Part shown: piece after piece, positions 6,222-51,190 of the stretch
How the letters are laid out: every line of letters begins with the position of its first letter
How positions within the stretch are numbered: the stretch's first letter is position 1
IMG/VR virus record: IMGVR_UViG_3300012943_000386
Span: 37,662 to 101,661 of that record
From: a virus
Lineage: Duplodnaviria; Heunggongvirae; Uroviricota; Caudoviricetes
Strand: one strand, 5' to 3'
Length of the DNA: 64,000 nt
Translations under genes and position numbers: made by a program
The notes under the pieces: model-generated
Database searches by the model: none
What the model was told of the DNA's origin: nothing
Seen by the model: only the letters and a program-made list of their open reading frames with translations

Positions 6222-7391
6222 TCAGCGCTCAGTGTAGCGCGTTGTGATCGCTGGTGGCGCTTCAATAGAATTGAGCGACATGACAACGTCTGCCCTACGC
6301 GCGTCAATGTGCTCAAGTGAAGAGCGTGGCGTCTGAAGCTGTGGCAGCGTGATCACATCTCGTTCAGCATCCTCACCCTTCTCTTCAGGAAGAGCAGGAC
6401 GAGAGGTTGACGCCGTGTACTCTTCAACGACTGGAGCTGGTGTGTCGAGCGGCATGTCATCAGGAACCTCAACAGTTGCGCCACCCGGGTGTGGGCCAAA
6501 AAAGATGTCCTTGTCACTATCAGGTGAGTATGCAGCTAGCGTGTCCATTCCTGCTGACAGCTCATCAGCATCAAAGCTTGATTTGAGAACAGCATCTGGA
6601 TCGGCGGCCTTCTCAACCTGTTCCTTGTAGTATTCATCTGTGGTGCCAGTCGTCGTCGTCATCAGCGGGCCTGTGACCTCGCCAACCACCATCACCGGCG
6701 CTGCAGGCTCGGGCTTCTTCCTACGTTCAATGAGGAAGTTACCGGCGATCAGCAGCACGATTGCAAACGGGTCGAACACGAAGATGATCGTGAGGATGAC
6801 GTATTTGACCGCCTTCTCAGGGGTGGTGTTGAACGCCTCAGCTACATAGAGGATTGGGCCGAGGTCAGCGCTTTGTTTGACGTTGGCAGACTTCAGCTGT
6901 GGAAGCTGCACATCAATTTCAACAAGGCGCTTGTTGATCCTATCTGTTTCAGGCGCGAACTCCTGCATTAGCTGGCGCCGCGCACGAGCATAATCAGCAG
7001 GAAGGTTTGCGATCTGCTTATCGATTTCCTGCTTGCGGGCCTGCAGCTTTGTCTGTTCACCCTCAAGCGATGTGATGATGATCGTGTCTTGATTGTTCGT
7101 GACGATGGCGTGCTGGAACTGCTGTGATAGGTAGCCGAACACACCAGTCGACGTGATGAGCATGAGAACCGCCGTCGCCGGGATCATGAACCCCTTCATC
7201 AGCAGCTTGATGTCCTTCCAGTACTTGTAGAGGAAGGAGACGCCAGCGACCTTACCAATGTCCAGCGCGATGGCCATCAAGATGATGACCGGGTTCATGT
7301 TGAAGAGGTGACCTAGGCCGGCGACGCTGATGTAGGTACCAATGCCTTCAATGAACAGAGCTGCAAATAGAACGAGGGCGATGAAGAACAC
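6222..7391 (-). CDS. membrane protein with 4 N-terminal TM helices, central coiled coil and acidic C-terminal tail
   Basis: Hydrophobic N-terminal 130 aa, heptad-like middle, D/E/P-rich tail. Confidence 0.55.
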   Translation of the reverse strand: MFFIALVLFAALFIEGIGTYISVAGLGHLFNMNPVIILMAIALDIGKVAGVSFLYKYWKDIKLLMKGFMIPATAVLMLITSTGVFGYLSQQFQHAIVTNNQDTIIITSLEGEQTKLQARKQEIDKQIANLPADYARARRQLMQEFAPETDRINKRLVEIDVQLPQLKSANVKQSADLGPILYVAEAFNTTPEKAVKYVILTIIFVFDPFAIVLLIAGNFLIERRKKPEPAAPVMVVGEVTGPLMTTTTGTTDEYYKEQVEKAADPDAVLKSSFDADELSAGMDTLAAYSPDSDKDIFFGPHPGGATVEVPDDMPLDTPAPVVEEYTASTSRPALPEEKGEDAERDVITLPQLQTPRSSLEHIDARRADVVMSLNSIEAPPAITTRYTER

Positions 7392-8143
7392 TAGACAGCT
7401 CCAATATGCTTGACGATTTCGGGCAGCACGTCAGCGGCTCTACCCTTTGCGAAAATGTAGTTCTTCCCAACATCACCGCAGCCAGAAAGATATGGCTTGA
7501 GATTTACCTCGACAACCTGCGCGCCGCGATTGAGCGGACCAATGACTAGGTCGGCGGCTGGAAATACGTTCAACGATGTTCCAACCGAAACGACAACGTC
7601 GGCATCCTTTGAAAAACCGATGGCTTCCATGAGGGCAGCAGGTGAAAGGTTTTCGAAGAACCATGTGATGCTTGGGCGGAGGTTTTCACTGCGACATTTT
7701 GGGCAAACAGGAACGCTCTCATTGACCCAGAGGTTTTCCTCAGTGGTGTAATCACACGTATCGAAGTTGATGCCGAAGCACTGAAACTTTGCGATGTTTC
7801 CATGAAGCTCGACGAGCTTCTTACTTCCAGCGGCCGCGTGAAGACCGTCAACGTTCTGTGTTGCTAGAAGGAATGGAACACCTTCAGCTTCACAGCGCTG
7901 CTCAATCTGAGCGATGGCAACATGACCGGCGTTTGGCTTGGCACCTGAGTAGGAAAGATAGCGGTCGCGATAGAACTTCCACACGAGCTGTGGGTCCTTC
8001 TGAAACGCCATAGGCGTGCAGACATCTTCAACGCGATGACCTTCCCATAGACCACCGTCTGTTCGAAAGGTTGGTAGGCCCGAGTCGGCCGATAGGCCGG
8101 CGCCGGTGAAGATCAGAACACCCTTCACTTTGACATCTCGCAC
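7391..8143 (-). CDS. Sir2-family NAD-dependent protein deacylase (CobB-like sirtuin)
   Basis: GAGLSADSGLPTFR NAD-binding motif, catalytic His in VELHGN, Zn ribbon CFGINFDTC...CPKC. Confidence 0.85.
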   Translation of the reverse strand: MRDVKVKGVLIFTGAGLSADSGLPTFRTDGGLWEGHRVEDVCTPMAFQKDPQLVWKFYRDRYLSYSGAKPNAGHVAIAQIEQRCEAEGVPFLLATQNVDGLHAAAGSKKLVELHGNIAKFQCFGINFDTCDYTTEENLWVNESVPVCPKCRSENLRPSITWFFENLSPAALMEAIGFSKDADVVVSVGTSLNVFPAADLVIGPLNRGAQVVEVNLKPYLSGCGDVGKNYIFAKGRAADVLPEIVKHIGAV

Positions 8144-9972: not shown

Positions 9973-10019
9973 TAGGGAGCTCCAGAAGAGAATATCGGAT
10001 GTGATAGCTCTGTAGTGTG

Positions 10020-10028
10020 GTATTTATC
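10020..10028 (-). promoter_or_regulatory. T4-type late promoter motif GATAAATAC
   Basis: Plus gtatttatc; ~50 nt upstream of ATG 9972 (hypothetical protein, then GroES). Confidence 0.4.
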
Positions 10029-10049
10029 TTGCCCCGCCCAAAAACAGGT

Positions 10050-10316
10050 TCACGCTATGACCTTGATTTTGGCACCTTCTGGCGGTACCCAATCATCAGG
10101 TTGAGGAAACCTTGAGGTGAAGGTGTATTCTTCACGCTCCTCGCTGTCAAGGTCCTCTGCCTCAGGCCAGAACTGAAGGATCTGATCCTCATTGTCTGCA
10201 TACGCAACGACAACGCTGAACCCATCACCACCACCGGTGCACCACCATGGATGTGGGTATGGAACCTTGATTGGACGGCAATCGTCCTCATTTGCTTTGA
10301 AGCGACAGCGGATCAT
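10050..10316 (-). CDS. hypothetical protein (88 aa)
   Basis: ORF track; acidic. Confidence 0.45.
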   Translation of the reverse strand: MIRCRFKANEDDCRPIKVPYPHPWWCTGGGDGFSVVVAYADNEDQILQFWPEAEDLDSEEREEYTFTSRFPQPDDWVPPEGAKIKVIA

Positions 10317-10534
10317 TCTAGCTCCTTGTCAAGAAAATCAATTGCGAGTAGTCGTTGTGAAAGTTCAGCCTTCAACTGCTCAAGCTGCCATTCACCCCAC
10401 GGTGTAAAGAACCCATCGTAATCATCGCCTTTTGACGCTTCGATTGTCTCAGTAAGCAGGTCATTATTTGAAAGACCCCAAATGCGGTTTTGCTCACGCT
10501 CTGCATTAAGCTTTGACGGCTTTTTCTTTTTAGT
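10313..10534 (-). CDS. hypothetical protein (~73 aa)
   Basis: ORF track 10313..10639 trimmed to MTKKKKPSK. Its ATG overlaps the stop of the DnaE-like N fragment (ATGACTAA). Confidence 0.45.
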   Translation of the reverse strand, partial: TKKKKPSKLNAEREQNRIWGLSNNDLLTETIEASKGDDYDGFFTPWGEWQLEQLKAELSQRLLAIDFLDKELE

Positions 10535-11069
10535 CATGAAAGAATTCTTCCATTGCAATGCCATACTTGATCGGATCGACCTTGTGCAGACCGATAATGA
10601 ACAACACCAACGACGCGCACGAAGAACCACGGCCAACACCCCATACTGTCTTCGTCTCTTTTAGGGTGTCGATGACATAGATGAGCGTTTTCACCAACGG
10701 ATCCATGCCGCGAATTTGAATTTCTTCAAGCTCAACCTTCACTCGCTGCGCGTACTTTGCTGTTGTCTCGTAATCCCAGCGCTGCGCTAATGCCATTGTT
10801 CCAACGGCGTCGAGGACGTAGTTGGCAAGGTCAATATCTTGGTAGCTTTTCGGAACCTTCCACGCCATGTTGAGTGGACGGTTCTTGTCCTTACCTACCG
10901 TAAGCTGCTCCTCAGAAAACTGGTTGAACTGTCTCGTATCCTCACTCTCCTCATTGAGGGCGATGAGCTCTGGAGGGATACCGCCCAGGAAAAGACTTGG
11001 GACCAGCGCAGGATTTACCTGGCTGGTCCCATCGAACCACAGCGTTCTGTCGTTGAGCTCGGTCTTCAC
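10530..11069 (-). CDS. DnaE/PolIII-alpha-like palm domain, N-terminal half
   Basis: C-terminus VWGVGRGSSCASLVLFIIGLHKVDPIKYGIAMEEFFHD matches DnaE [34 protein letters not shown]. Ends exactly where PDIDIDF begins in the other fragment. GTG start at 11067-11069 coupled to the upstream stop. Confidence 0.7.
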   Translation of the reverse strand: MKTELNDRTLWFDGTSQVNPALVPSLFLGGIPPELIALNEESEDTRQFNQFSEEQLTVGKDKNRPLNMAWKVPKSYQDIDLANYVLDAVGTMALAQRWDYETTAKYAQRVKVELEEIQIRGMDPLVKTLIYVIDTLKETKTVWGVGRGSSCASLVLFIIGLHKVDPIKYGIAMEEFFHD

Positions 11070-11071
11070 GC

Positions 11072-11674
11072 TTAGAAGATCGTGGCGAGCCCGATCCAGG
11101 AGCCGATGATCAACACGACGGCGGCGATGATCAGGCGAGTGATCTTCCAGTCGTCGCTCTCTTCATATGACTTGAGCGCGCGGCGCTGCCACAGTCCCCA
11201 AAGGAACGGCTTGGTCTCATACTCAACGCGGCTCGCGAAGCGGGCACGGAAGAGCAGGTAGCCGGCAAGCATGTACACGAAGAGCAGGATACTGCAGCCG
11301 ACAACTACGCCGAGGATTTCCTGGCCGATCAGCTTGTAGACGACCACGCCGACGGTGACTTTGCCCAGCGGAGTTTCAGCGAACTCGTTGGCGGCAACGC
11401 CGATTTCCTTGGCAGCACCTACTACGGCGCGGCCCATGTTGGTTCCCATCTCACCCCATGCAGCCGCTTCAGTTCGCACTGTCTCGGAGATGTTGGCGGC
11501 AGGAACACCTTCAACGATGCCCTTGGCCTTGTCGGCCTTCATCTTGGCGATCTGAAGATTGATCTCTGCCTGCTGTGCGTCATTGAGCCCGCGGGTGTCG
11601 GCCGACTGTGCAAGCACGCCGGAAGTGAACAGCAACGCACATGTCGCTGCAAGTGCAATCATCGTCTTCTTCAT
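11072..11674 (-). CDS. secreted / membrane-anchored protein (signal peptide, C-terminal TM)
   Basis: MKKTMIALAATCALLFTSGVLAQS signal. Hydrophobic C-terminal segments. Confidence 0.5.
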   Translation of the reverse strand: MKKTMIALAATCALLFTSGVLAQSADTRGLNDAQQAEINLQIAKMKADKAKGIVEGVPAANISETVRTEAAAWGEMGTNMGRAVVGAAKEIGVAANEFAETPLGKVTVGVVVYKLIGQEILGVVVGCSILLFVYMLAGYLLFRARFASRVEYETKPFLWGLWQRRALKSYEESDDWKITRLIIAAVVLIIGSWIGLATIF

Positions 11675-11979: not shown

Positions 11980-12521
11980 GTGAAATGATCCACTGGAACA
12001 CCGCGTAAGCGGAGAAACTGAATGCCCGCGTCATCGCGGTAGAGCTCATCGAACACGACGCGCTTGATGCCGCTCTGCCACATCAGCTTGGCGCACTCAA
12101 TGCACGGAGACATGGTGATGTAGACCGTGGCGCCGAAACACCCTTCACCACCATTCTTAGCAAGTTTGGCGATAGCGTTGCTCTCAGCGTGCAGAACCTC
12201 TGGCTTGGTGCGGAGAGTTGGTGGGATGTCGGTTAGCGAGAAGCCTTGCGGTTCTTGGTGCCAATACTCGCAGACGTCGTCCTTCTCGCCAGCCGGCATT
12301 CCGTTGTAGCCGTCTGAGATGATCTGATCACCCTTGACGATCAACGCTCCAACCTGCTTGCGATTGGCCTTTGAGCGCCGTGCCCACACGTAGGCCATGT
12401 TGATGTAGGCCTCGTCAAGCGAGAGACGATTTGGGTTGACGGTGAGTTCTTGGTTAGTGGATCGTGCTATCATCATCCAAGCCAGTGTCAGGAGTTCGGT
12501 TGAGGGCAAATTCTTCTTCAA
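11961..12521 (-). CDS. dCMP deaminase (cytidine/deoxycytidylate deaminase zinc-binding family)
   Basis: GALIVKGDQIISDGYNG, HAESNAI (HAE zinc ligand), SPCIECAKL (PCxxC). Confidence 0.85.
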   Translation of the reverse strand: MKKNLPSTELLTLAWMMIARSTNQELTVNPNRLSLDEAYINMAYVWARRSKANRKQVGALIVKGDQIISDGYNGMPAGEKDDVCEYWHQEPQGFSLTDIPPTLRTKPEVLHAESNAIAKLAKNGGEGCFGATVYITMSPCIECAKLMWQSGIKRVVFDELYRDDAGIQFLRLRGVPVDHFTCEAIK

Positions 12522-12783
12522 CGTCGAAGATCACCTCGGCGAGAAGCGCGAAAAACCCAAGGTTGCCAGCATCGATCTGCGAGACAAGCTCATGGTAGAG
12601 CCCGTCAGAAAGAAGGCCGTTGAGGCCAGCAACGTTCGTGTATGTTTGAAGGCCAAGGTCAGTGCGCTTCATGACCATGCAGACAACGGCATAGTCGGGG
12701 TCCTTCGTGAGTTCGGCGATCTTCGCCTGAACATCATCAGCGAACTGCACTAACTTTGGGTCTGTATCGTCAGGTTTATCCAT
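12454..12783 (-). CDS. hypothetical acidic protein (109 aa)
   Basis: ATG 12781-12783. Palindrome TATCAC-N11-GTGATA immediately upstream. Confidence 0.45.
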   Translation of the reverse strand: MDKPDDTDPKLVQFADDVQAKIAELTKDPDYAVVCMVMKRTDLGLQTYTNVAGLNGLLSDGLYHELVSQIDAGNLGFFALLAEVIFDVEEEFALNRTPDTGLDDDSTIH

Positions 12784-12793
12784 ACCAGCATTG

Positions 12794-12816
12794 TATCACG
12801 CGCGAGGCTGGTGATA
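12794..12816 (-). promoter_or_regulatory. operator-like palindrome TATCAC-N11-GTGATA
   Basis: In the 35-nt spacer immediately upstream of ATG 12783. Confidence 0.25.
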
Positions 12817-17424: not shown

Positions 17425-17431
17425 AGGTCAA

Positions 17432-17464
17432 GTTATGTTAACTGGGACCGTTATGTTAAATGGG
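17432..17464 (-). repeat. two direct copies of a 15-bp element (minus CCCAGTTAACATAAC / CCCATTTAACATAAC)
   Basis: Plus 17432-17446 gttatgttaactggg and 17450-17464 gttatgttaaatggg, 8 nt upstream of the -35 of the helicase promoter. Confidence 0.5.
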
Positions 17465-17764
17465 TTAGTAGAGGTGGGCTAGAGAGCGGACGTAGCAGCT
17501 ACCATTCAAGCGGTGGTAGAGCATGCACCACTGGTGTCCTTTGTTTTGGCGTGCCACGGTCACTGAGGCTTGCTCATCGCAGCCCGTACACCAGTGGTAC
17601 ACCTCTAAAAGATTTTTCGGAACATCGTCAACGCGCTCTGTGTAACAGAACACGCACTTCATCTGCACTCTGTCTTTTGGAATTCGTGCGAAAAAGTCTA
17701 TCACTTCCGACACTGCTCTTCCTCTATATTGAGAACACTCCAGTTGCATCGCCAAATTTTTCAA
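17465..17764 (-). CDS. hypothetical Cys-rich protein (99 aa)
   Basis: CVFCYTE...CTGCDEQ zinc-ribbon-like. Overlaps the end of the DUF1552 gene by 40 nt. Confidence 0.35.
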   Translation of the reverse strand: MKNLAMQLECSQYRGRAVSEVIDFFARIPKDRVQMKCVFCYTERVDDVPKNLLEVYHWCTGCDEQASVTVARQNKGHQWCMLYHRLNGSCYVRSLAHLY

Positions 17765-18971
17765 GCTCTACACCAGCCTTCTGCGCCATCGTCAGTAGGA
17801 TGTTCGCGTGTGGTGTATCCTTGGGCAAGGCGAGATGTTGATTGCCCTTGATACCACCGCCATGCCCAGCGATGAGCTGTGGTAGTGGATTGTTGTTGTG
17901 TAGATCGCTGTTAGCCATGTTCGAACCGAATAGGATAATTGAGCTGTCAAGGATGGAGCCACCGGCTTCCTTGGTTTCAGCAAGGCGCTTGATGAAGCGC
18001 GCGAAGCGCTCAGTGTGGTAGGCCTGCACTCGCACAAGTTTCTCATGCTTGCTAGGGTCCTCACCATGATGTGACAGTGGATGGAAGGCCTCGTCAACGT
18101 TGATCGTTGGATAGGTGCGCATACTCGCTTCCTTCACCATGCGCATCGAAGCAATGCGGGTCTGGTTCGTTTGGAAAGCAAGAGCAATCATGTCGAACTG
18201 AATGTCAAGCAGCTCAGTGAAGTCGTCAGGTGTACCAACTGGCGCGTTAGGCAGTTCTCCAAGTGAGCCCGCTTTCGCAATCAGCTTCTGCATGCGCAGC
18301 TCTACCTCGCGAACGTTCTCGAGGTAACTATCCACAAGAGCACGGTCTGCAGCACCCAACTTGCCGCTCAGGCTCTTGCTAGCCTCTGTGACGTAGTCAA
18401 GCAATGAACCAGTTGCCTGTAGGCGAGCGATGCGGTCAGCGTTGTTGTCACCAGCACCGAACATTGTGTAGAAGATCTTGCGAGGGTTGCCCTCAAGCGG
18501 GAGACCACTAGAACCGCGGTAGCTGATTGAACCACCTGGCTCGCCGCAAAGCTCAAGCGATGAGAGAGGTGTTGACTGGCCGATCTGCTTTGCAGCTATT
18601 TGATCGATTGTGGTACCATCGGTTGTGCGATCATCTGGGTTCTTGCATGAGAGCCAGGTCTGCTCAATGATGCCATGTGGGTTGGAGCTCTCGCCTGGCT
18701 TGTTGCGGAGGCCGCTTATCACGGTAATGTGCCCGCGTTGGCTTTCAAGCGGCTTGAGGATTGGAGAAAACTCGAAGTTGGTTCCAACCGTCTTAGGCGT
18801 CCAGAACTGCTGCACGGCCCCGTGTGGGAAATAGACGAAGGCTAGGCGAGATTGGGATTGTACGCTGGCACCAAAGGCTGGAACCATTGCGTCCAGCAGC
18901 GGCAGTGATATAGCAGCTCCTGCACCCTTGAGAACGGTGCGGCGGGAAAGCGCTTTCTTCGTAAGGTACAT
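17724..18971 (-). CDS. Tat-signal DUF1552-family protein (host-like, function unknown)
   Basis: MYLTKKALSRRTVLKGAGAAISLPLLDAM is the characteristic DUF1552 twin-arginine N-terminus. ILKPLESQRGHITVISGL and later blocks fit the family. Confidence 0.65.
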   Translation of the reverse strand: MYLTKKALSRRTVLKGAGAAISLPLLDAMVPAFGASVQSQSRLAFVYFPHGAVQQFWTPKTVGTNFEFSPILKPLESQRGHITVISGLRNKPGESSNPHGIIEQTWLSCKNPDDRTTDGTTIDQIAAKQIGQSTPLSSLELCGEPGGSISYRGSSGLPLEGNPRKIFYTMFGAGDNNADRIARLQATGSLLDYVTEASKSLSGKLGAADRALVDSYLENVREVELRMQKLIAKAGSLGELPNAPVGTPDDFTELLDIQFDMIALAFQTNQTRIASMRMVKEASMRTYPTINVDEAFHPLSHHGEDPSKHEKLVRVQAYHTERFARFIKRLAETKEAGGSILDSSIILFGSNMANSDLHNNNPLPQLIAGHGGGIKGNQHLALPKDTPHANILLTMAQKAGVELEKFGDATGVFSI

Positions 18972-18983
18972 TGCGCACCTCCT

Positions 18984-19274
18984 CTAGTTCTTCAGCAAGG
19001 ACACCAGAATGTTGCAGCGAGCAACGACAGAGCCTGAGGCATCTGTCGTGATGTTCGTCTTTGGGTTGTACGTCCCCATGAGCTTGCCAATCTTATTGAA
19101 GAGGCGCATGTTGCCCGCCTGCTGTCGCAGGGTTCCAATTAGCTTGCCGTCGGCATCTCTGAGGTAGGTTGCAGCCATGCAGTATTTACACCACTGCGCG
19201 CACTCTTGACACGAGAACCTCATACCCATTGAGGTAGCTACCAGAACAAAGATCAACGATACCAATCGGAGCAA
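18984..19274 (-). CDS. hypothetical protein (96 aa), hydrophobic N-terminus
   Basis: ORF track. Overlaps the 3' end of 19186..19698 in another frame. Confidence 0.3.
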   Translation of the reverse strand: MLRLVSLIFVLVATSMGMRFSCQECAQWCKYCMAATYLRDADGKLIGTLRQQAGNMRLFNKIGKLMGTYNPKTNITTDASGSVVARCNILVSLLKN

Positions 19275-19698
19275 CGACCGCTGGTTGCTTATCTGTTGCC
19301 TCGCGAATTAGAGTTCCAAGCACTAGATTGTATGGAATGCCAGATGCCCGGCAGGCCTGTAGAAGTTCAAGCTGAGATATTGCTAGCTTAACCGGCCCAT
19401 CTGTTTCAAGTTTCACTTCAGCTATTTCACTACCTAAGCAACCATCACACGCGTAGTTGAAATGCCGACCCGCCTTGATGTCGTGATTTTCGCGGATGAC
19501 ATTAGCAACCATGTCTGGCCACGGCATCGAGCTAAGCTCTGGTTCTTCAACCCACGGTAGGCCCACTTTAGCGCTTGCCCACTGAATGAGAAGTGGCTCG
19601 GCTACTCTCCCGTGCGCCGCTTTCCACGGGTCGCGGCACCCGCTTATGGGGTTCTTAAAGCAGAAGTCGACTTTATCAATTGGAAGTTCAAGCATCAC
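19186..19698 (-). CDS. hypothetical protein (170 aa)
   Basis: ORF track. Sits between the DUF1552 and Thg1-like genes. Confidence 0.45.
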   Translation of the reverse strand: MMLELPIDKVDFCFKNPISGCRDPWKAAHGRVAEPLLIQWASAKVGLPWVEEPELSSMPWPDMVANVIRENHDIKAGRHFNYACDGCLGSEIAEVKLETDGPVKLAISQLELLQACRASGIPYNLVLGTLIREATDKQPAVVAPIGIVDLCSGSYLNGYEVLVSRVRAVV

Positions 19699-20519
19699 GC
19701 AAAGAGCGCTCGCGCCCTGGTATCGTTCTTGATGTAGCCAAGATCCATGTTCACCACGCTGGTGCGCGCAACTGGGCCGGACGGACGATACTTCTCTGGG
19801 ATTTTCGCGAGCTGCTCTGCTGAGATTGGCCTCATCTGCGTTTCGCGACGAACGAACGTACCGCTCTTGAAGAACGTTGGCTCATCTTCCCACGGCTTGT
19901 TGAGCTCGCGCAGCAGCTGCTTCTTGCTCTCACTGTCCACCGCGTGAAGGCGCTTGTGCGAGAAGTGCGCCTGCGCGGCCATCGAGATGGAGTTTTTGAT
20001 CGCGTCATCCTGGCGCCAGAGGAAGTTCAGGAAGGCCTCGTGCTTTGTTGGCACGTTCCACACACGGCAATCGAACATTGCCAGCTGGTCAGCCTTTTCA
20101 GGGATGCGCTCAGGCAGGTAGCGCGTGAAGTAGGCGCTCGCCATAGCGGCGAGTACCGACGTCAGCTTCTGGATTTTGCCGTCGAAGAGGTAGGTGCTTT
20201 CGGCCGCCGGGTCATCGTTCCACCATACGAGGCTGATCTCGTCAGACTGAGTGTAGCCAACGCGTGCGTGCGTCTGCTCAACGAGGTACCTCGCGGTGTC
20301 GATCATGAGGCTGCTTAGGCGCACGTCGTACGGACGCGGCAGACCACGGGTGAAGGTGTGGAACGCCCGGCCATCGAGGCGAGCCATGAGAGGCGCACCG
20401 TGGTCGGCGCGACGGCCAGCCTCAACTTGCTCTTGCTGCTTGAGGCGATCGCCTAGGCTGTCTTTGGAAGGGGTCTGTTCGACTTCATTCATGGGGCTCA
20501 CCGATAGATTAGACCCCAT
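19695..20519 (-). CDS. Thg1-like protein (tRNA-His guanylyltransferase family, 3'-5' nucleotidyltransferase)
   Basis: MARLDGRAFHTFTRGLPRPYD (Thg1 VRLDGRNFHKF), GYTQSDEISLVW (YGQSDEYSF), FDCRVWNVPTKHEAFLNFLWRQDDAIKNSI and the C-terminal block align with Thg1/TLP. ATG 20517-20519. Confidence 0.7.
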   Translation of the reverse strand: MGSNLSVSPMNEVEQTPSKDSLGDRLKQQEQVEAGRRADHGAPLMARLDGRAFHTFTRGLPRPYDVRLSSLMIDTARYLVEQTHARVGYTQSDEISLVWWNDDPAAESTYLFDGKIQKLTSVLAAMASAYFTRYLPERIPEKADQLAMFDCRVWNVPTKHEAFLNFLWRQDDAIKNSISMAAQAHFSHKRLHAVDSESKKQLLRELNKPWEDEPTFFKSGTFVRRETQMRPISAEQLAKIPEKYRPSGPVARTSVVNMDLGYIKNDTRARALFA

Positions 20520-20527
20520 TCTATCAC

Positions 20528-20549
20528 CAGTTTACAGGTCAGTAAACTG
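20528..20549 (-). promoter_or_regulatory. hairpin CAGTTTAC-aggtca-GTAAACTG between the 2H phosphoesterase and Thg1-like genes
   Basis: 8-bp stem in the 33-nt intergenic spacer just upstream of the Thg1-like RBS; no U-tract. Confidence 0.3.
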
Positions 20550-20552
20550 TGA

Positions 20553-21008
20553 TTAGCTCCACTCAGTGTCCATCGCCTCGACATACTCCTGTCCGAGCAG
20601 GATCTGGAAGTCGATTGGCTTCAGCTTCTTCGGGTCACCGTAGAACGACATCGAGAGGGTGATGTGCGGCTGGAACGTTGGGAAGTCGTATGAGGCGCCG
20701 TGTTCAGCCATCAGCTTGATGTGGCGTGCCACAACTGATGGCGCGTTCAACTTGACGACCAGCACCGTGTCCTTGCCCTCGTCATGGTTCGTAAACAGCG
20801 CAAAGTCCTCAAAGCGCGCAATGTGCATCTCAGGATCAGGCACGATCAACGGACATGGCTTGCGGCTGTACAGGACAGTCGTGTGAAGACGACGGTCGAA
20901 GCTTGACTTGTTAACGAGGATGCCTGATTGGCGACAGAACTCGTAGAGCTTAGGGCCTGACGGTGGGAGAATTCTCAACCCAACGTAGGTTCCATTCTTA
21001 TGATCCAT
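20553..21008 (-). CDS. 2H phosphoesterase superfamily protein (two HxT/S motifs; LigT / Acb1-like)
   Basis: HTTVLYS (~res 42) and HITLSMS (~res 116) give the H-phi-T/S-phi pair with the spacing of 2H cyclic phosphodiesterases. 151 aa. Confidence 0.6.
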   Translation of the reverse strand: MDHKNGTYVGLRILPPSGPKLYEFCRQSGILVNKSSFDRRLHTTVLYSRKPCPLIVPDPEMHIARFEDFALFTNHDEGKDTVLVVKLNAPSVVARHIKLMAEHGASYDFPTFQPHITLSMSFYGDPKKLKPIDFQILLGQEYVEAMDTEWS

Positions 21009-21016
21009 ACGCTCTC

Positions 21017-21045
21017 ATTATATGCTATTTGATTAGGAGAGAAAA
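21017..21045 (-). promoter_or_regulatory. -10 TATAAT placed 8 nt before the ATG of the 2H phosphoesterase gene (leaderless transcript likely)
   Basis: Minus TATAAT = plus 21017-21022; ATG at 21008. Weak -35 TTTTCT 17 nt upstream. Confidence 0.35.
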
Positions 21046-21046
21046 C

Positions 21047-21493
21047 TTAATCTGCCTTCGCATTTCCCTTCGGTGCGTCGTCGTCGCCCTTGTTCTTCCC
21101 ACTAGAGCTGTCGCTCACGCCGTACTTGGCGCGCAGGAAGCGTGAGAAACCTTCAACCGACGCGACGTACGCGAGGTAGATGGCGAACAGGTCCCAGGTA
21201 AGTGCAGCCTGAAGAGTGAGCTTGACGATTGCGAATGATGCGACTATTCCACCAACGAGCTGCAGCGTCTTTGTAGTAGAGGCACGGTTGCGCTTGGTGT
21301 ACGGGTCATACGTGGTGATCATGTCCGTAAGGTCAAGATCACTGTCCTGGTTGCTGTGCAGCTTCCAGACGATGAATGCTATGAAAAGGAAAATGATCGT
21401 CACGGCAACACCATAGGCGTTGACCGAGAACTGACCGAAGGTCAGCATCGAATTTTCCAGCATTTCTTTGGCTTGTTCCACGGCGATACCCAT
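21047..21493 (-). CDS. integral membrane protein (3 TM)
   Basis: ORF track 21047..21568. Likely start MGIAVEQ (GAAGGAAAA RBS). Late-promoter motif upstream. Confidence 0.5.
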   Translation of the reverse strand: MGIAVEQAKEMLENSMLTFGQFSVNAYGVAVTIIFLFIAFIVWKLHSNQDSDLDLTDMITTYDPYTKRNRASTTKTLQLVGGIVASFAIVKLTLQAALTWDLFAIYLAYVASVEGFSRFLRAKYGVSDSSSGKNKGDDDAPKGNAKAD

Positions 21494-27085: not shown

Positions 27086-27608
27086 TCTTCGGTTTCCTGG
27101 TTGTTGCGCTGCCAACGGCCTCAAAGAAGCTTGTGAGCAGGCCTGTAAAATAGGCGCTGATCTTCGGCCAACCAAAGTCCATAGGAGCAGGAACGATGCG
27201 ACGTGGTGGCGGAGGCGGAGGCGTTGGACGTGGTGGCAGCGATGACCGCTTGTCATTGACCTTCAGTGGGATATATGGCGACTGAAGATCTCCAAGATTG
27301 ATGGTCTTCTTGCGCGCGGTCGGTTTTCTTGCAGCTCGCTTTCTGGGCGTGAAGGCGGCATCCATATCCTTACCCATCTGCTCCATGTCCTTGTCAAGCT
27401 TCTTCATGTCCTCATCAAGGCTCTTCATGGCGCGATCAAGCGTCTTCTGCGCTGTCTCTGTGATTTCACCGGCCACGCCATTGTCGTAGAAGATCTGGGT
27501 GCTCTGAGACCGGCTCACTGGCGGAATGCCTGCCAACCGGCGAAGATGATTGAGGTGCTCGCTTGGCTGTGTCATCGGGCGAATATCACCCATTGGCATT
27601 TTGGCCAT
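27051..27608 (-). CDS. proline-rich coiled-coil protein (spanin-like?)
   Basis: KKLDKDMEQMGKDMD repeats, then PPRPTPPPPPPRR. Confidence 0.45.
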   Translation of the reverse strand: MAKMPMGDIRPMTQPSEHLNHLRRLAGIPPVSRSQSTQIFYDNGVAGEITETAQKTLDRAMKSLDEDMKKLDKDMEQMGKDMDAAFTPRKRAARKPTARKKTINLGDLQSPYIPLKVNDKRSSLPPRPTPPPPPPRRIVPAPMDFGWPKISAYFTGLLTSFFEAVGSATTRKPKNDKGGPQEPTP

Positions 27609-27882
27609 CTCGCCTCCGCTTCAGGTACTTGTCAATGTTGATCGTTGCTACAGTCCCGAAGAACGTCGTGATGACGGCAACGGCAATGAGCCAGTAGTTG
27701 TGCAGCACTGAGATCGTGGCGATGATGCCCGACATGTAGATGCCGCTCGCCCACATTCCCGACTTCACAGCCGCACCCTCACCTACGCGCCGAACGTACA
27801 GCGCCCACGCTACATCGTTGACCAGGATGCAGCCGACGACGGCAAGGACTGACAGGATGGATGGGAATTCAGGTAGGGTCAT
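27586..27882 (-). CDS. small 3-TM membrane protein (holin-like?)
   Basis: 98 aa, three hydrophobic helices, charged C-terminus. Confidence 0.45.
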   Translation of the reverse strand: MTLPEFPSILSVLAVVGCILVNDVAWALYVRRVGEGAAVKSGMWASGIYMSGIIATISVLHNYWLIAVAVITTFFGTVATINIDKYLKRRRDGQNANG

Positions 27883-27894
27883 GCGCCAATTGTA

Positions 27895-28461
27895 TCACAG
27901 TTCGCTGCTACGCACAATCTTCAACCAATCCTTCCACCAAATTCTCTGACCAAAAACGTTTGGATAGAAACCCCAATCATCGCGACCGACCGCGTCATTC
28001 ACCTTGCGACCACGAATGAACAGGGTCCAGGTCTCAACGCCTTCAGGTAGCTCGATCCAGTGCGCGTTAGCTGGGATGCTCTTGAACTTTGGTGTGGGGT
28101 AAACAACGTTGTCAACCGTGACAAAGCTTTGCTCAATGAGCTTAGTGTGCTTGGTTTTATCTGACCTGATGATTGAACCAGGTCCGCGCCACGTTCGGAT
28201 GTCGGTACCATACTCGTTCGGCTTATGCTCCCAGTAGCCGCCTCTCAAAATGACTGTGAGGTAGCTAAACGGGTGGTCATGATAGACGGGGCTATCTGAC
28301 TTGTGGAAGTGATGCAGGAAAATGTTGCCAGGAATATCGGTGCGCTCACCGTCTACCTGGTCCTTGTACGCGAGGTAGTAGCGAGTGAGGTACGGTTCAC
28401 CCTTGTCATAGATGACGTACTTGCGCCCGGCTTTTTCAAGGCGGTCAAGAATGAAGCTCAT
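27895..28461 (-). CDS. cupin-like His-rich hypothetical protein
   Basis: ORF track 27895..28749 trimmed to MSFILDRLEKAG. HHFHKSD...HDHP metal-binding-like. Confidence 0.45.
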   Translation of the reverse strand: MSFILDRLEKAGRKYVIYDKGEPYLTRYYLAYKDQVDGERTDIPGNIFLHHFHKSDSPVYHDHPFSYLTVILRGGYWEHKPNEYGTDIRTWRGPGSIIRSDKTKHTKLIEQSFVTVDNVVYPTPKFKSIPANAHWIELPEGVETWTLFIRGRKVNDAVGRDDWGFYPNVFGQRIWWKDWLKIVRSSEL

Positions 28462-33836: not shown

Positions 33837-34757
33837 TTACTCAGCCGTCGCAGCTGCGGCAGCCTTGGCCTTTGAGCGGGCCTTCAGCTGTTCGAGCACG
33901 TTGCTGGTCTTGGAGGCAACAGCGGCAACAGCAGGGCTCGTAGCCGGAGCTGGAGCATCTTCAGTCTTCACTGTGGCTGGAGCTGCCTTTGCAGCCGCAG
34001 GAGCGGTTGCAGCTGGAGCAGCGTCGGTAGCGGCAGCAGGAGCATCACCTTCTGAGCCATCATCGTACGACTGACCGGTCTGGTCGGCGACGAGGAGGGC
34101 CTCAACCGTTGCTGCGTCCACCTTCTTGGAGCGGTAGTCGACAAGGTTGTACAGCGTGATGGCCTCGATCACTTCATCATCGAGATCAGTCTGCTTCGGG
34201 GCGAAGCTTGAGGTGTTGTACGAGGCGTACTGACCCGACTTGGTCTTCTTGATGCGGAAGTTGTAGCCACCCTTGAACTCGTATGGGGCTTCCTCGAGAT
34301 CGCCGGACTGGAACGCCGCCTGGATCTGCTTGAACACGGCAGGGCCGAATTCGATGAGCTTCACGAGAGCCTGCTGGTCATGCTCGATCGGGCTTTCAAC
34401 CACGATCACCTGGCCAATGTAGCTCTTCTTGCGGTAGTAGCGCTTGCCCATGTCTTCGTTCTTCTCGTCGTAGAACTTACGCGAGAGATTGCAGATTGGG
34501 CAGTCGTCGCCGTGCATCTTGAGGCATGGAACCTTTTTCTTCTGACCATTGACAACAAGCTCGTGCTGGAGGTTTTCCACCAGAAAGCCGAGGCTGTTTT
34601 CTTCGTCGAGGTCAGGGAGGAAGCGGACTACAGCGGTGCTGTCGTCAGGCATTTTCCAGAATGGATAAAAGAGCTTCCAGTTTTGGTCTCCGCCTGCGTT
34701 TCCCTTTTTGGCAAAGTTGGCCTTCAGGGTATCGAGACGGTTCTTTACGTTAGACAT
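33837..34757 (-). CDS. ssDNA-binding protein, T4 gp32 family
   Basis: AVVRFLPD (T4 AVIRFLP), Zn site HGDDCPIC, acidic Ala/Pro-rich C-tail. ORF track starts at TTG 34784. ATG 34755-34757 with GGAGAA RBS is preferred. Confidence 0.8.
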   Translation of the reverse strand: MSNVKNRLDTLKANFAKKGNAGGDQNWKLFYPFWKMPDDSTAVVRFLPDLDEENSLGFLVENLQHELVVNGQKKKVPCLKMHGDDCPICNLSRKFYDEKNEDMGKRYYRKKSYIGQVIVVESPIEHDQQALVKLIEFGPAVFKQIQAAFQSGDLEEAPYEFKGGYNFRIKKTKSGQYASYNTSSFAPKQTDLDDEVIEAITLYNLVDYRSKKVDAATVEALLVADQTGQSYDDGSEGDAPAAATDAAPAATAPAAAKAAPATVKTEDAPAPATSPAVAAVASKTSNVLEQLKARSKAKAAAAATAE

Positions 34758-34817
34758 GTTGTTATTCTCCAAAGTGTAAATCAAAAACGATCAAATACAA
34801 AACGTGCTTGAGGCACG
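34758..34817 (-). promoter_or_regulatory. gene-32 5' leader: short hairpin plus ~40-nt U-rich unstructured tract (candidate translational operator)
   Basis: Minus RNA from the late promoter: CGUGC-cucaa-GCACG hairpin (plus 34803-34817), then UUUUGUAUUUGAUCGUUUUUGAUUUACACUUU before GGAGAA-ATG. Confidence 0.3.
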
Positions 34818-35495: not shown

Positions 35496-35706
35496 GATAC
35501 TCCTCAATGTGCGGCGCATCTCTGCAAACGTGGCACTTCGTGCAGCGCTCACCGTCGTAGTAGGTCTGCGTTCCAGGACCAATGGTGATCCACCCGCTGC
35601 CCTTGACCCAATCATGGTCACAGGCATCCGCATGGGCGCGATAGATGTAGATCGCAATCGCAGCGAGGATGAGAAGAATACCAATGAAGGTGAACGTGTT
35701 CAGCAT
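35479..35706 (-). CDS. small membrane-anchored Cys/His-rich protein
   Basis: N-terminal TM FIGILLILAAIAIYIY, then CDHD...CTKCHVC. Confidence 0.4.
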   Translation of the reverse strand: MLNTFTFIGILLILAAIAIYIYRAHADACDHDWVKGSGWITIGPGTQTYYDGERCTKCHVCRDAPHIEEYHEHRE

Positions 35707-36266
35707 GGTCCGGCCATCCCTTCAACAGCCACGACTGGCTGGTCAGTGTCCACAAACATGACGCTGTCGACCTCTGCTCCAAGGAGCAGGCCTTGCTGGC
35801 TCATGTACATATTGCGCACGACGCCATCCGGCACGCTCTTGTCGCCGCGCGTCTTCTGGCGGTCAAGCACGGTCTGCAGCTTGCACATCACCTCAACGCC
35901 GATAACGTAGAACCCCTTCTGCCGCGCCTCCTGTATCCAGCGAGCACGACCCTTCTTGGTGAAGTTCGTGTTGTCAACGAACAGATTGTCGGTCTCGAGC
36001 GCCTTTGACCAGGCCTCAGCAATGAAGACGTTGAACTCCTTCTCGTGGTTCTTGGCGTACTCGAAGGTCGCGTTGTACATGTCTGCGTCGGTATCATTGT
36101 CCGACCACCACTGGCCCGGGTGTTGCGCACACATAAACTTGTAGCGGCACGTGTCCAGCGAGAAAACGTTGTAGCTCTCGATCCGGAAAAGATCGATCAG
36201 CGTCTTGCGCACAGTCGTCTTTCCGGCACCAGAAGGTCCAACCATTAGGTAGCACTTCTTCATCAA
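35700..36266 (-). CDS. P-loop kinase, polynucleotide 5'-kinase (T4 Pnk N-domain)-like
   Basis: Walker A MVGPSGAGKTT. KLQTVLDRQKTRGDKSVPDGVVRNMYMS parallels T4 Pnk [25 protein letters not shown]. No phosphatase domain. Confidence 0.65.
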   Translation of the reverse strand: MMKKCYLMVGPSGAGKTTVRKTLIDLFRIESYNVFSLDTCRYKFMCAQHPGQWWSDNDTDADMYNATFEYAKNHEKEFNVFIAEAWSKALETDNLFVDNTNFTKKGRARWIQEARQKGFYVIGVEVMCKLQTVLDRQKTRGDKSVPDGVVRNMYMSQQGLLLGAEVDSVMFVDTDQPVVAVEGMAGPC

Positions 36267-36577
36267 CGCACCTCGATAGTAGTAATGCCGTTGTCTTTTC
36301 GCAACTCAGCACTGTGCTGTTGTGAAGCGTCAACACATTTGAACTGAATTTGCGCGCGCGGGTCTGGTGTTCGTGTTGAGTTAATGGACATTACTTCAAT
36401 AACTTTACCATGAGATTGACAAAACTGCCCAGCTTTTTCAAGGGCTGGCACTTCAGGTGCAGACCATGGTACACCGTGTGTAGACAACAAATAAGTATCG
36501 CGGCCAGTAGATACTGGGTGCGATACTGTTGTACAGCCAGAAATGAGGGCGACTACAAAAACGAATGTCTTCTTCAT
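36263..36577 (-). CDS. lipoprotein
   Basis: MKKTFVFVVALISGCTT lipobox signal peptide. Confidence 0.5.
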   Translation of the reverse strand: MKKTFVFVVALISGCTTVSHPVSTGRDTYLLSTHGVPWSAPEVPALEKAGQFCQSHGKVIEVMSINSTRTPDPRAQIQFKCVDASQQHSAELRKDNGITTIEVR

Positions 36578-37176
36578 ACAGCCTCCCAAGCGATCATCCA
36601 CTCAGCCACGTCAGCGAGCTTCTTGGGCTGATCGTCCGATGTGCGGCCATGCTGGTCGCTGTTGAGCAGGTCCAACCATGCCTGGTGTCCTGCCGGACCC
36701 ATGCGGTTGATGAACGCGTCCTTCAGGGCCTTGCGCTTCTGCTTGTCCTTCAGCGCGAACGGCACGTGGTGCTCAAGCATCAGCGCAACGTTTGAGATGT
36801 CAGCGAGTGAGAAGCCGGTCAGCTCAGTAACGAGTGCTCGGTTCGTCAGCGCGTAGTCCACCCACATGCGAGCTGAAACCTGCTCATGGCCATGGTAGGC
36901 GCGGTAGTTGCCGCGTTCCTCGGAGAACTTGAGGATCTCTGCTGGCGGCTTGCCGACATCGTGAAACAGGCAGCTGACCAGCGAGAGCATGCGCTGCGTC
37001 TCTGAGCGGTGCTCGTAGAAGTTTGCCATGTAGTAGTCAAGCAGCATCTGCGTATGAACGGCAACATTTGCCTCGCGATGCCATGGCGAATTCTCGACCG
37101 TACGCACCATCGCGGCCCACTCAGGCGTCTGCTTGAATGCCGCGTGGAGAGCTGTGAATTGTGCGTAGGCGCTCAT
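36574..37176 (-). CDS. HD-domain phosphohydrolase
   Basis: H...HD motif (VAVHTQM ... SCLFHDVGKP), 200 aa. Confidence 0.7.
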   Translation of the reverse strand: MSAYAQFTALHAAFKQTPEWAAMVRTVENSPWHREANVAVHTQMLLDYYMANFYEHRSETQRMLSLVSCLFHDVGKPPAEILKFSEERGNYRAYHGHEQVSARMWVDYALTNRALVTELTGFSLADISNVALMLEHHVPFALKDKQKRKALKDAFINRMGPAGHQAWLDLLNSDQHGRTSDDQPKKLADVAEWMIAWEAV

Positions 37177-49483: not shown

Positions 49484-49898
49484 CTTGGTAGAAGAGCGAT
49501 TTTTCAGTTAGTACCATGAACCCGAGGCCGTGCTGCTCACAGAATATCTGTGCTGCCTTCCACTTAGCATCATTGACGCCTACTGCCTCAATTGCCCTGT
49601 CGTGCTTGGCCTTCTTTATGTCCGTCTCGTGCAGCGGCTTGATCTCAAGCAACCACTTCTTAACCGTTCCATCCCTATCCTTAATCTCAGCGAAAAAGTC
49701 CGGGATGTAAGTGTGGACCCTTCCGTCTGTTGGCTTGATGTAGGCGATCTGAATTTCTTCACTCCCCCACTTCAGCACCGAAGATCTGCTGTCAAGCCAC
49801 CTCATCGCATAGTGCTCCCATGAGGAGCGCCACATAATCCTGTCTACGTCTCCAACGTACTTATCAGGAAACCGCGGGATGAAGCGACCGTATGCCAT
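49431..49898 (-). CDS. PD-(D/E)xK nuclease, T7 endonuclease I-like, paralog B
   Basis: HTYIPDFFAEIKDRDGTVKKWLLEIKP. Collinear with paralog A. Confidence 0.5.
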   Translation of the reverse strand: MAYGRFIPRFPDKYVGDVDRIMWRSSWEHYAMRWLDSRSSVLKWGSEEIQIAYIKPTDGRVHTYIPDFFAEIKDRDGTVKKWLLEIKPLHETDIKKAKHDRAIEAVGVNDAKWKAAQIFCEQHGLGFMVLTEKSLFYQGEKKRKLEKINEATRAM

Positions 49899-51190
49899 TA
49901 TGACTGCGACGTTGTTGAACCACCTGAGCTGTTGTCGGCGACAGGCGGTGGCTTAGGAGCAATGATGCCATCAGCAATGCCGTTTCCAGCTGTCTTCAGC
50001 GTCCTCGCTGCCTGCGTTCCCAGCGTTCCAGAGATGAGTGACGTAGCATTTGCTAGCTCACCACCAAAGGCTGAGCCGATGCCTGACTTATGGATCTGAT
50101 TTGCGAGCGTGGTCTGGACCATGCGCGCACCCTGATTGGCGATGATGTTGATGAACGGTGATGCTTGATTTCCACCAAGACCGCCAGGCTGTGATGGTCC
50201 GCGTACCAGCGTGCCACCGTCAGCGCCAAATCCAGACAGAATATCGTTGAGCTCCATGAGACCAGTCTCTGACCGCTCAAGATCATCAGCGATGATGCCT
50301 GTCTTCATGAACAGCGCGTCAAAATCAAACTGACAGTCCATCATGTTTGGAGCGCCGCCGCTCTCATGGTCCTGATCCTGCAGCGTAAAGCCAGAGATGC
50401 GAGGGTTGGTGAACGTAAAGGTGTTGACGTAAATTGATTGGCGGATCTGTTGACCCTTTAGGTTGGCGCTTTCACCACGGTTGAGATAATACTGCTCGAT
50501 CGTAAGCGCACGAAGAATATCCTTCGCCTCACGTCCATCGACGGTCTTGATGGCAGCTCGCATCGATGTGTCAATGCCCTGAAGGTTGTCAGCGAACGCA
50601 AAGCCGAAGTCCTCAAGCGGCGTACCTGTTGACCAGTTTTGGCGCGCCAGTGGCTGAAGGATCTGGAGGTACACGTTCATAAACTTGATGGCGTTGTTCG
50701 CAACGTCATCGTAGAAAACAAAGCTGAGCGCCTGGTGATTGATGCGCTTCAGAATTTTGGTTCTGAAGTTGTACATGTTCACCTCTTCGTACTCAAGCTC
50801 GTACTTAGGCATGTCGATTTGCTTGACGACGTACGTAAGGTTGCGATCGAGTGAATGCTCAGTGTCAAGACCTAGCGATGCGGCTATGCGCTTCGCGGCG
50901 TCGTTGAACTCAAAGCGAACCTTGAAGAGAAACTTGGTTTTTGGATCAAAGCCACCAGCGCCAGATGCCATAGTGGCTGCGTAAGGCGTGACGTCCCAGT
51001 CACCATGGCTGGAGAAATTCCCAGGAGGGACAGGGTTGACGCTTTGATTTATTCGCGTGCCAGGCTGAGAGCTGAAGATGCTGTTGAGAACATTGCCCGA
51101 TTGATTTGCGACGGCGGCACCAAACGTACGGTACGCCTGAGCCTCCAGCGCTACGCCGGTGGAACCGATGATACCTGAAATGTCTGCCAT
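49898..51190 (-). CDS. virion structural protein (430 aa), G/S/N-rich C-terminus
   Basis: Late motif 27 nt upstream; position after tube/Ig genes. Confidence 0.5.
   Translation of the reverse strand: MADISGIIGSTGVALEAQAYRTFGAAVANQSGNVLNSIFSSQPGTRINQSVNPVPPGNFSSHGDWDVTPYAATMASGAGGFDPKTKFLFKVRFEFNDAAKRIAASLGLDTEHSLDRNLTYVVKQIDMPKYELEYEEVNMYNFRTKILKRINHQALSFVFYDDVANNAIKFMNVYLQILQPLARQNWSTGTPLEDFGFAFADNLQGIDTSMRAAIKTVDGREAKDILRALTIEQYYLNRGESANLKGQQIRQSIYVNTFTFTNPRISGFTLQDQDHESGGAPNMMDCQFDFDALFMKTGIIADDLERSETGLMELNDILSGFGADGGTLVRGPSQPGGLGGNQASPFINIIANQGARMVQTTLANQIHKSGIGSAFGGELANATSLISGTLGTQAARTLKTAGNGIADGIIAPKPPPVADNSSGGSTTSQS

Follow-up and report, generated by a model that had tools for sequence, protein, structure and literature searches.

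Acb1 of phage T4, the product of gene 57B (NP_049750.1), is a single-domain 2H enzyme of 152 amino acids whose catalytic tetrad consists of H44, T46, H113 and T115 (Hobbs et al. 2022, PMC9117128). Y12, W74 and F107 are its base-stacking residues, W147 is the lid residue, and E141 contacts the adenine N6 (PMC9117128). The pocket admits di- and trinucleotides only, and the reaction goes through, and hydrolyses, a 2',3'-cyclic phosphate (Hobbs et al., PMC9117128). Here we describe an Acb1-family gene in a 64,000-nucleotide stretch of a tailed-phage genome (positions 37,662 to 101,661 of IMG/VR record IMGVR_UViG_3300012943_000386), referred to as the window. The gene lies at 20553..21008 on the minus strand, which also carries every other window feature located below, and encodes 151 amino acids from an ATG start to a TAA stop (20553–20555). 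We consider it likely that it encodes a functional phage 2H phosphodiesterase of the Acb1 family, which by homology would cleave signals of CBASS (cyclic oligonucleotide-based antiphage signalling), and that it is expressed from its own promoter with a leader of 0–2 nucleotides. Membership of the family rests on profile, fold and residue conservation, and the promoter element on its recurrence.

Profile searches assigned the protein to Acb1. Residues 5–151 aligned with positions 1–142 of the 144-position Pfam profile Acb1 (PF23474) with a score of 91.9 bits, where 27 is the cut-off (E = 4.1e-26), and PHROG 755, the family of T4 gene 57B, which bears the historic label 'RNA ligase', was matched with E = 3.9e-24. 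The LigT_PEase (PF02834) and 2_5_RNA_ligase2 (PF13563) profiles stayed below threshold for this protein (16.7 bits vs 23.3 and 13.7 bits vs 27, respectively). NCBIfam gave no match for it or for three of its neighbors described below, namely a Thg1-like protein (TLP), a small membrane protein and a 170-amino-acid open reading frame (ORF). The sole meaningful matches in a sequence search of the PDB were Acb1 of Erwinia phage FBB1 (7T26/7T27; E = 2e-12 for 7T26) and the Acb1-like enzyme of Burkholderia phage BCSR5 (9Q2G).

The predicted fold pointed the same way. An AlphaFold2 model built with 33 homologues as input had a mean predicted local distance difference test score (pLDDT) of 93.1 and a predicted template modeling score of 0.85. 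When this model was searched with Foldseek, five Acb1 structures ranked on top (E = 3e-9 to 9e-8), followed by cyclic phosphodiesterases (CPDases) and LigT with E values of 5e-4 or worse, so that Acb1, and not LigT or a CPDase, was the nearest structural neighbor. The window protein does share the 2H fold, the two HxT/S motifs and the 2',3'-cyclic phosphate chemistry of its family with LigT/ThpR and the bacterial CPDases (E. coli LigT 4QAK/5LDI, Deinococcus 5H7E). The subthreshold profiles and the Foldseek ranking nevertheless speak against a LigT/ThpR-type RNA phosphodiesterase or a 2'-5' RNA ligase. As judged from sequence and model, every membership test for Acb1 that can be computed places the protein in that family, and the profile and fold tests for LigT/ThpR do not recognize it.

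To compare functional residues, we took the sequences of T4 57B, FBB1 Acb1 and KVP40 57B from their genome records and aligned them with the window protein. The first catalytic motif, HTTVLYS (residues 42–48; 20865..20885), contains H42 and T44, which correspond to H44 and T46 of T4 Acb1, and the second, HITLSMS (residues 115–121; 20646..20666), contains H115 and T117, corresponding to H113 and T115. The motif histidines are 73 residues apart, versus 69 in T4 Acb1, and H42, T44 and H115 were invariant across 33 homologues. The remaining contacts were also found: Y12, W74 and F107 of T4 align with Y8, F72 and F109, and the C-terminal lid segment EAMDTEWS (20556..20579) supplies E144 for T4 E141 and W150 for T4 W147. 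All nine functionally defined positions of T4 Acb1 are thus conserved, W74 being replaced by Phe as it is in FBB1.

These results bear on the initial annotation, which had been made from the letters of the sequence alone. It had noted, without giving the strand, a 151-residue ORF with two 2H-type motifs, both of which are present as described, and its call of a 2H phosphoesterase was right, with profiles, fold and residues favoring the Acb1 branch over LigT. Its statement that sequence alone cannot separate the two proved wrong, since the Pfam scores and the nine T4 Acb1 residues separate them. The structure prediction that it had proposed as a check, carried out here with AlphaFold2 and Foldseek, placed Acb1 first and LigT/CPDase well behind.

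The reading frame and its start are well defined. An in-frame TGA lies 6 nucleotides 5' of the ATG at 21008, and the conserved N-terminal GTYVG motif, which begins at residue 6, is kept by no other start; this ATG is therefore the only sensible one. We recovered 34 homologues, all with PF23474 and with E values down to 3e-74 for the closest relative (self excluded), and by this comparison the gene is more than a chance ORF. The exact protein is also encoded on a 198,078-bp metagenome contig (ENA ERZ27256383 k141_234680), and its source protein collection had already assigned PF23474 to it. A tblastn search found an Acb1 homologue in 1402 phage records, with identity of at most 36% in all of them. 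Among the matches listed, most were myoviruses of Vibrio, Acinetobacter, Aeromonas and enterobacteria, in which the gene is labeled 57B, RNA ligase or anti-CBASS nuclease. The window protein is a new, divergent member of an already known family. One related locus, L034 (IMGVR_UViG_3300042389_000736, 10001-11269), has the Acb1 domain as the N terminus of a 422-residue ORF, whose C-terminal extension of 270 residues had no Pfam match.

By homology to the T4 and FBB1 enzymes, Y8, F72, F109 and the C-terminal lid residue Trp150 would form a U-shaped pocket in which an immune signal, a cyclic di- or trinucleotide, is clamped, with E144 reading the adenine. The H42-x-T44/H115-x-T117 tetrad would then cut 3' of adenosine, without metal, with a 2',3'-cyclic phosphate as intermediate. 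Once linear, the product would be unable to activate CBASS-type effectors, and abortive infection would therefore be blocked. Both the substrate range and the anti-CBASS role in the natural host are what we infer for this protein.

Some observations weigh against this assignment of substrate. Overall identity is only 25% to T4 Acb1 and 31% to FBB1 Acb1, and 21–30% to the solved Acb1 members. Given that the functional residues are kept at such low identity, conservation is concentrated on functional sites. We scanned IMG/VR with the Acb1 alignment; the clade referred to here comprises 16 distinct loci with an Acb1 at least 41% identical to that of the window. The lid Trp is present in the window protein and missing in 6 of the 16 clade proteins, including that of the closest relative, L018, in which a TAG stop aligns with the window Trp150 codon TGG. 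The exact substrate set within the clade is uncertain because of this loss. Finally, substrate scope differs within the Acb1 structural group and its lids are modular (Doherty et al. 2025), so that a precise substrate list should not be assumed for the window protein.

The clade Acb1 proteins that end before, or lack, the lid Trp are those of L018 (10430-10441), L021, L023, L024, L032 and L012. At the lid of the window model, residues 141–150 had an average pLDDT of 85 and the last residue one of 45; the low value at the end is in keeping with a flexible Acb1 C terminus. In its lid the window protein resembles T4 rather than the BCSR5 enzyme 2H PDE-9 (9Q2Y/9Q2G; Doherty et al. 2025 preprint): PDE-9 has an N-terminal lid and avoids 2'3'-cyclic di-AMP, whereas the window protein has a short N terminus and, like T4 Acb1, a C-terminal lid with a Trp.

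The same observations leave room for an Acb1-family signal phosphodiesterase with a target outside CBASS, such as type III CRISPR cyclic oligoadenylates or a different adenosine-containing messenger, or with a narrowed specificity. Doherty et al. (2025) report cleavage of CD-NTase, housekeeping and type III CRISPR messengers by enzymes of the T4 Acb1 structural group, with preferences that differ between close members such as PDE-9 and T4 Acb1. The low identity to solved members and the loss of the lid in part of the clade, which suggests shifting substrate requirements, fit this explanation as well. However, the catalytic and base-contacting residues that were defined on 3'3'-cyclic GMP-AMP (cGAMP) are all present, the Acb1 pocket fits only di- and trinucleotides (Hobbs et al., PMC9117128), and no feature of the sequence indicates any specific alternative substrate. 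We regard a non-CBASS target as improbable and continue to favor cleavage of a CBASS signal.

The DNA 5' of the gene carries a candidate promoter. On the minus strand the order is ...AATAGCA-TATAAT-GAGAGCGT-ATG, with a perfect −10 hexamer TATAAT at 21017..21022 and the 8-nucleotide spacer GAGAGCGT at 21009..21016. With this spacing, the canonical transcription start falls 2 nucleotides before the A of the ATG. From the usual distance between a −10 element and the start, transcription would begin at G21010 or A21008 and give a leader of 0–2 nucleotides; we infer both this start and an early timing of expression. The duplex between the Acb1 start and the anti-Shine-Dalgarno sequence was calculated at −2.7 kcal/mol, whereas 28 called genes had a median of −5.8, and there is no usable Shine-Dalgarno sequence. 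The gene combines two marks of a leaderless start, a −10 element 5–9 nucleotides from the AUG and the lack of a Shine-Dalgarno sequence.

Leaderless transcripts are known in phages, an example being lambda cI transcribed from PRM. The layouts are alike in that a Shine-Dalgarno sequence is lacking and a −10 element for the host RNA polymerase is placed so that transcription would start on the AUG or beside it, a likeness that for the window is read from the DNA. They differ in that the 8-nucleotide spacer of the window predicts a leader of 0–2 nucleotides and not a start exactly on the A.

The hexamer is not randomly distributed in the window. The total number of TATAAT sites was not above that in shuffled sequence (7 vs 4.9 ± 2.1 expected), but across the whole window the coding strand carries all 7 of them and none lies on the other strand. 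The same strand has 19 of the 21 TA[TC]AAT and all 6 TGnTA[TC]AAT sites. The sites are also enriched between genes, since 4 of the 7 TATAAT are intergenic though intergenic DNA makes up only ∼8% of the window.

Comparison with the related loci also supported the promoter. A TA[TC]AAT hexamer was found no more than 60 nucleotides upstream of the Acb1 start in 12 of the 16 loci, at varying distances, against an expectation of ∼4% per locus (binomial P ∼4e-14, a value inflated by the relatedness of the loci). Many of them have the extended −10 form, TGnTATAAT or TGnTACAAT, and the 17–38 nucleotides that follow include a Shine-Dalgarno sequence. In L018, whose orthologue is 79% identical, TATAAT is likewise 8 nucleotides from the ATG, and the 17-mer TATAATGtGAGCGTATG, which reads TATAATG(a/t)GAGCGTATG, is shared at 16 of 17 positions while the DNA farther upstream has diverged.

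The layout occurs elsewhere in the window. Two further called genes have the extended −10 element TGATACAAT exactly 6 nucleotides before the ATG (12795 and 27894), no Shine-Dalgarno sequence and equally poor Shine-Dalgarno scores: an ORF of 109 residues (12454..12783, element at 12783-12798) and one of 98 residues (27586..27882, element at 27882-27897). Leaderless-type starts may, on this sequence pattern, be a recurrent feature of the phage.

Other features of the site speak against its being a promoter in its own right. The promoter scan found no recognizable −35 element and no TG extension at the Acb1 TATAAT, whereas 5 of the 6 other perfect TATAAT sites of the window have TG directly or one base upstream. 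No two-hexamer promoter was called before Acb1 by this generic scan, whose overall counts were at chance level (5 found, 4.2 expected); because of this, the promoter argument rests on the strand bias and the comparative data and not on the scan.

The TATAAT might accordingly not be an active leaderless promoter, and Acb1 could be transcribed by read-through from upstream promoters of the co-directional gene array and translated independently of a Shine-Dalgarno sequence by some other route. In addition to the missing −35 and TG elements and a hexamer total within the range of shuffles, this explanation is consistent with a scan that found no terminator-like coding-strand site between the upstream gene and Acb1, and with a canonical start that falls not on the ATG but 2 nucleotides before it. 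The conservation in L018 could also come from recent common ancestry, given the 79% protein identity. Against read-through stand the strand bias and intergenic enrichment, the hexamers at 12 of the 16 orthologous loci, often as TGnTA[TC]AAT, the 17-mer kept amid diverged DNA, and the two other genes with the same layout, all three genes being without anti-Shine-Dalgarno complementarity. We consider read-through possible but the less probable of the two.

On balance, the sequence evidence favors Acb1 as the first gene of a separate transcription unit that host RNA polymerase would read from a sigma70-type −10 element close to the ATG, with a leader of 0–2 nucleotides. For the promoter proposed in the initial annotation, the perfect TATAAT 8 nucleotides from the ATG was found as described, and the strand bias, intergenic enrichment, conservation in orthologues and lack of a Shine-Dalgarno sequence support its use, whereas the absence of a −35 element and a TG extension does not.

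Directly downstream of Acb1 lies the gene for the TLP (19695..20492), with 265 residues from the called start or 274 from an ATG at 20519. TLPs of this kind are 3'-5' polymerases of the tRNA 5'-end repair type. The protein matched Pfam Thg1 (E = 2.3e-27) and PHROG 4717 (E = 4e-73), and the closest solved structure was the Bacillus thuringiensis TLP 4KGK (E = 6e-38). Between the two genes the promoter scan found a promoter-like site, TTTACT-17 nt-TGaTAGAAT (20518..20546), and the sequence TGATAGAAT is present in the Acb1-TLP gap of both the window and L018.

We searched each fetched locus for a TLP gene. In the clade it lies directly 3' of Acb1 on the same strand in 14 of the 16 distinct loci, with gaps of 6–457 nucleotides and some stop/start overlaps; in one of the remaining loci it is 2.1 kb off, and in one (L009/L010/L019/L020, which count as a single locus) it is absent. 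Acb1 genes farther from this clade, those of the T4-like phages all among them, have no TLP or one 4–8 kb away. Besides the window, these observations concern the loci L018, L021-L033, L040, L011 and L014. The clade TLPs are more conserved (55–87% identity) than the Acb1 proteins (41–79%).

The conserved adjacency to a polymerase of the tRNA-repair type, the main argument for the RNA-repair option of the initial annotation, counts against a purely CBASS-directed enzyme to the extent that it leaves room for an RNA-related role. The Acb1 protein would then be an RNA end-healing 2',3'-cyclic phosphodiesterase that, together with the TLP, repairs tRNAs cut by a host defense nuclease and does not target immune nucleotides. 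Consistent with this, CPDases belong to the 2H superfamily, a 2',3'-cyclic phosphate arises and is hydrolysed in the Acb1 reaction too (PMC9117128), genes for a polynucleotide kinase (PNK)-like protein and an HD-domain protein are also present on the phage, and the 57B genes of T4, FBB1 and KVP40 are 1.3–1.7 kb from tRNA clusters. A search of the window with ARAGORN gave no tRNA genes, however, so that the TLP is not beside a phage tRNA-His gene and the proximity of 57B to tRNA genes seen in T4-like phages is not reproduced.

The genes are, moreover, separable. One clade locus, as noted, has Acb1 but no TLP; conversely, BcepSauron, RsoM2USA and FLC9, the cultured jumbo phages whose TLPs are closest, have no Acb1 within 4 kb of the TLP gene. 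The window and L018 have a separate promoter-like element for each gene, that of the TLP being TGATAGAAT. Neither an RNA ligase nor a kinase was found within ±10 kb of Acb1, and the ∼30 window ORFs scanned likewise included no RNA ligase; the TLP is adjacent and the PNK-like and HD genes lie ∼15 kb away. That HD and PNK pair could already provide end-healing. The Acb1 residues that contact the cGAMP bases are all kept, among them the Glu that reads the adenine and the Trp of the lid. We therefore give RNA end healing little credence and retain the signal-cleaving enzyme as the preferred reading.

The order glutaredoxin (grx)-membrane protein-Acb1-TLP-UvrD as a whole is kept across the lineage (UvrD 63–71% identical, except 45% in L031/L040), and the adjacency of Acb1 and TLP can therefore be inherited synteny. 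It looks like lineage synteny and not proof of joint function. A literature search for a link between Acb1 and Thg1 found none reported, joint mentions being for unrelated reasons. Acb1 and TLP may simply be adjoining accessories for counter-defense or RNA maintenance. It is less probable still than the end-healing role that the pair forms one ligase-independent phage tRNA-repair module. In such a module, the task of the 2H enzyme would be to resolve 2',3'-cyclic phosphate ends, or else to process an oligonucleotide, and that of the 3'-5' polymerase to restore the 5' acceptor end of tRNAs that a host defense nuclease has clipped. If true, the pathway would draw for tRNA repair on a protein whose only other known role is that of an anti-CBASS nuclease.

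The upstream neighbor of Acb1 encodes the small membrane protein of 148 residues (21047..21493), which matched PHROG 1322 (E = 3e-9) of the category 'moron / host takeover'; tblastn placed this gene just 5' of Acb1 in nearly all clade loci. The 170-residue ORF (19186..19698), which overlaps the TLP stop (ATGA) and has no family match, was considered as a conserved third member of the cassette and rejected, as this contig alone carries it, whereas L018 and all related loci lack it.

Among the other window genes are those for the terminase large subunit, tail sheath, tail tube, a UvsX-like recombinase, a gp32-like single-stranded DNA-binding protein (SSB), a UvsW-like helicase, class I ribonucleotide reductase, glutaredoxin, a UvrD-like helicase, dCMP deaminase and fragments of the DNA polymerase III alpha subunit. 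Almost all genes of the window lie on the minus strand. Acb1 is placed in the replication and nucleotide-metabolism region of a ∼198-kb contractile-tailed phage. It shares with T4 a setting in a large contractile-tailed phage, but the surrounding genes differ: 1-57A-57B-ipI beside a tRNA cluster in T4 versus nrdAB-grx-membrane protein-Acb1-TLP-UvrD in the window. FBB1 is T4-like (Tevenvirinae) and has T4-like synteny, whereas a megablast search with 15 kb around Acb1 gave no match to deposited phages, which indicates that the window phage has no close cultured relative. A T4-type late-promoter motif, TATAAATA, occurs upstream of structural genes, and copies precede the genes for the SSB-like protein (33837..34784) and the tail tube (49898..51190).

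Three genes downstream of Acb1 is a gene for a DUF1552/HXXSHH protein of 415 residues with a twin-arginine signal (17724-18971). The protein is 74–76% identical to proteins of Steroidobacteraceae and other gammaproteobacterial metagenome-assembled genomes. The gene, found only in the window phage and L018, was probably captured from a host in recent times. The resemblance of the protein suggests a soil gammaproteobacterial host, and the lineage probably infects Steroidobacteraceae.

The PNK-like P-loop kinase (35700-36266), which belongs to PHROG 505 and Pfam AAA_33 and weakly matches T4 PNK, and the HD-domain protein (36574-37176) match the C- and N-terminal halves of PHROG 6931, respectively, and are separated by a 112-residue ORF; by sequence they look like a split HD-Pnk nucleic-acid end-healing enzyme. 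The window also encodes a Sir2-family protein (7391-8143; Pfam SIR2 E = 6e-40, PHROG 2162) and, between the early region and the packaging genes, an SPFH/Band 7 domain protein of 459 residues (39526-40905; Pfam E = 5e-16). The 10-mer TTAACATAAC occurs in two tandem-like copies at ∼17425–17470, just upstream of the UvrD-like helicase gene.

Taken together, these data extend the Acb1 family, experimentally characterized in T4-like coliphages, to an uncultured lineage of large soil phages. The sigma70-type −10 elements that abut the start codons of three window genes suggest leaderless or near-leaderless early transcripts, and the clade as a whole retains the order membrane protein-Acb1-TLP; neither the promoter layout nor the stability of gene order alters what is known of Acb1 action. 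The Acb1 copies of the clade are at most 36% identical to any copy from a cultured phage, yet all functionally defined residues are intact in the window protein, which implies that CBASS-like cyclic-oligonucleotide signaling exerts selective pressure in the hosts of these phages.
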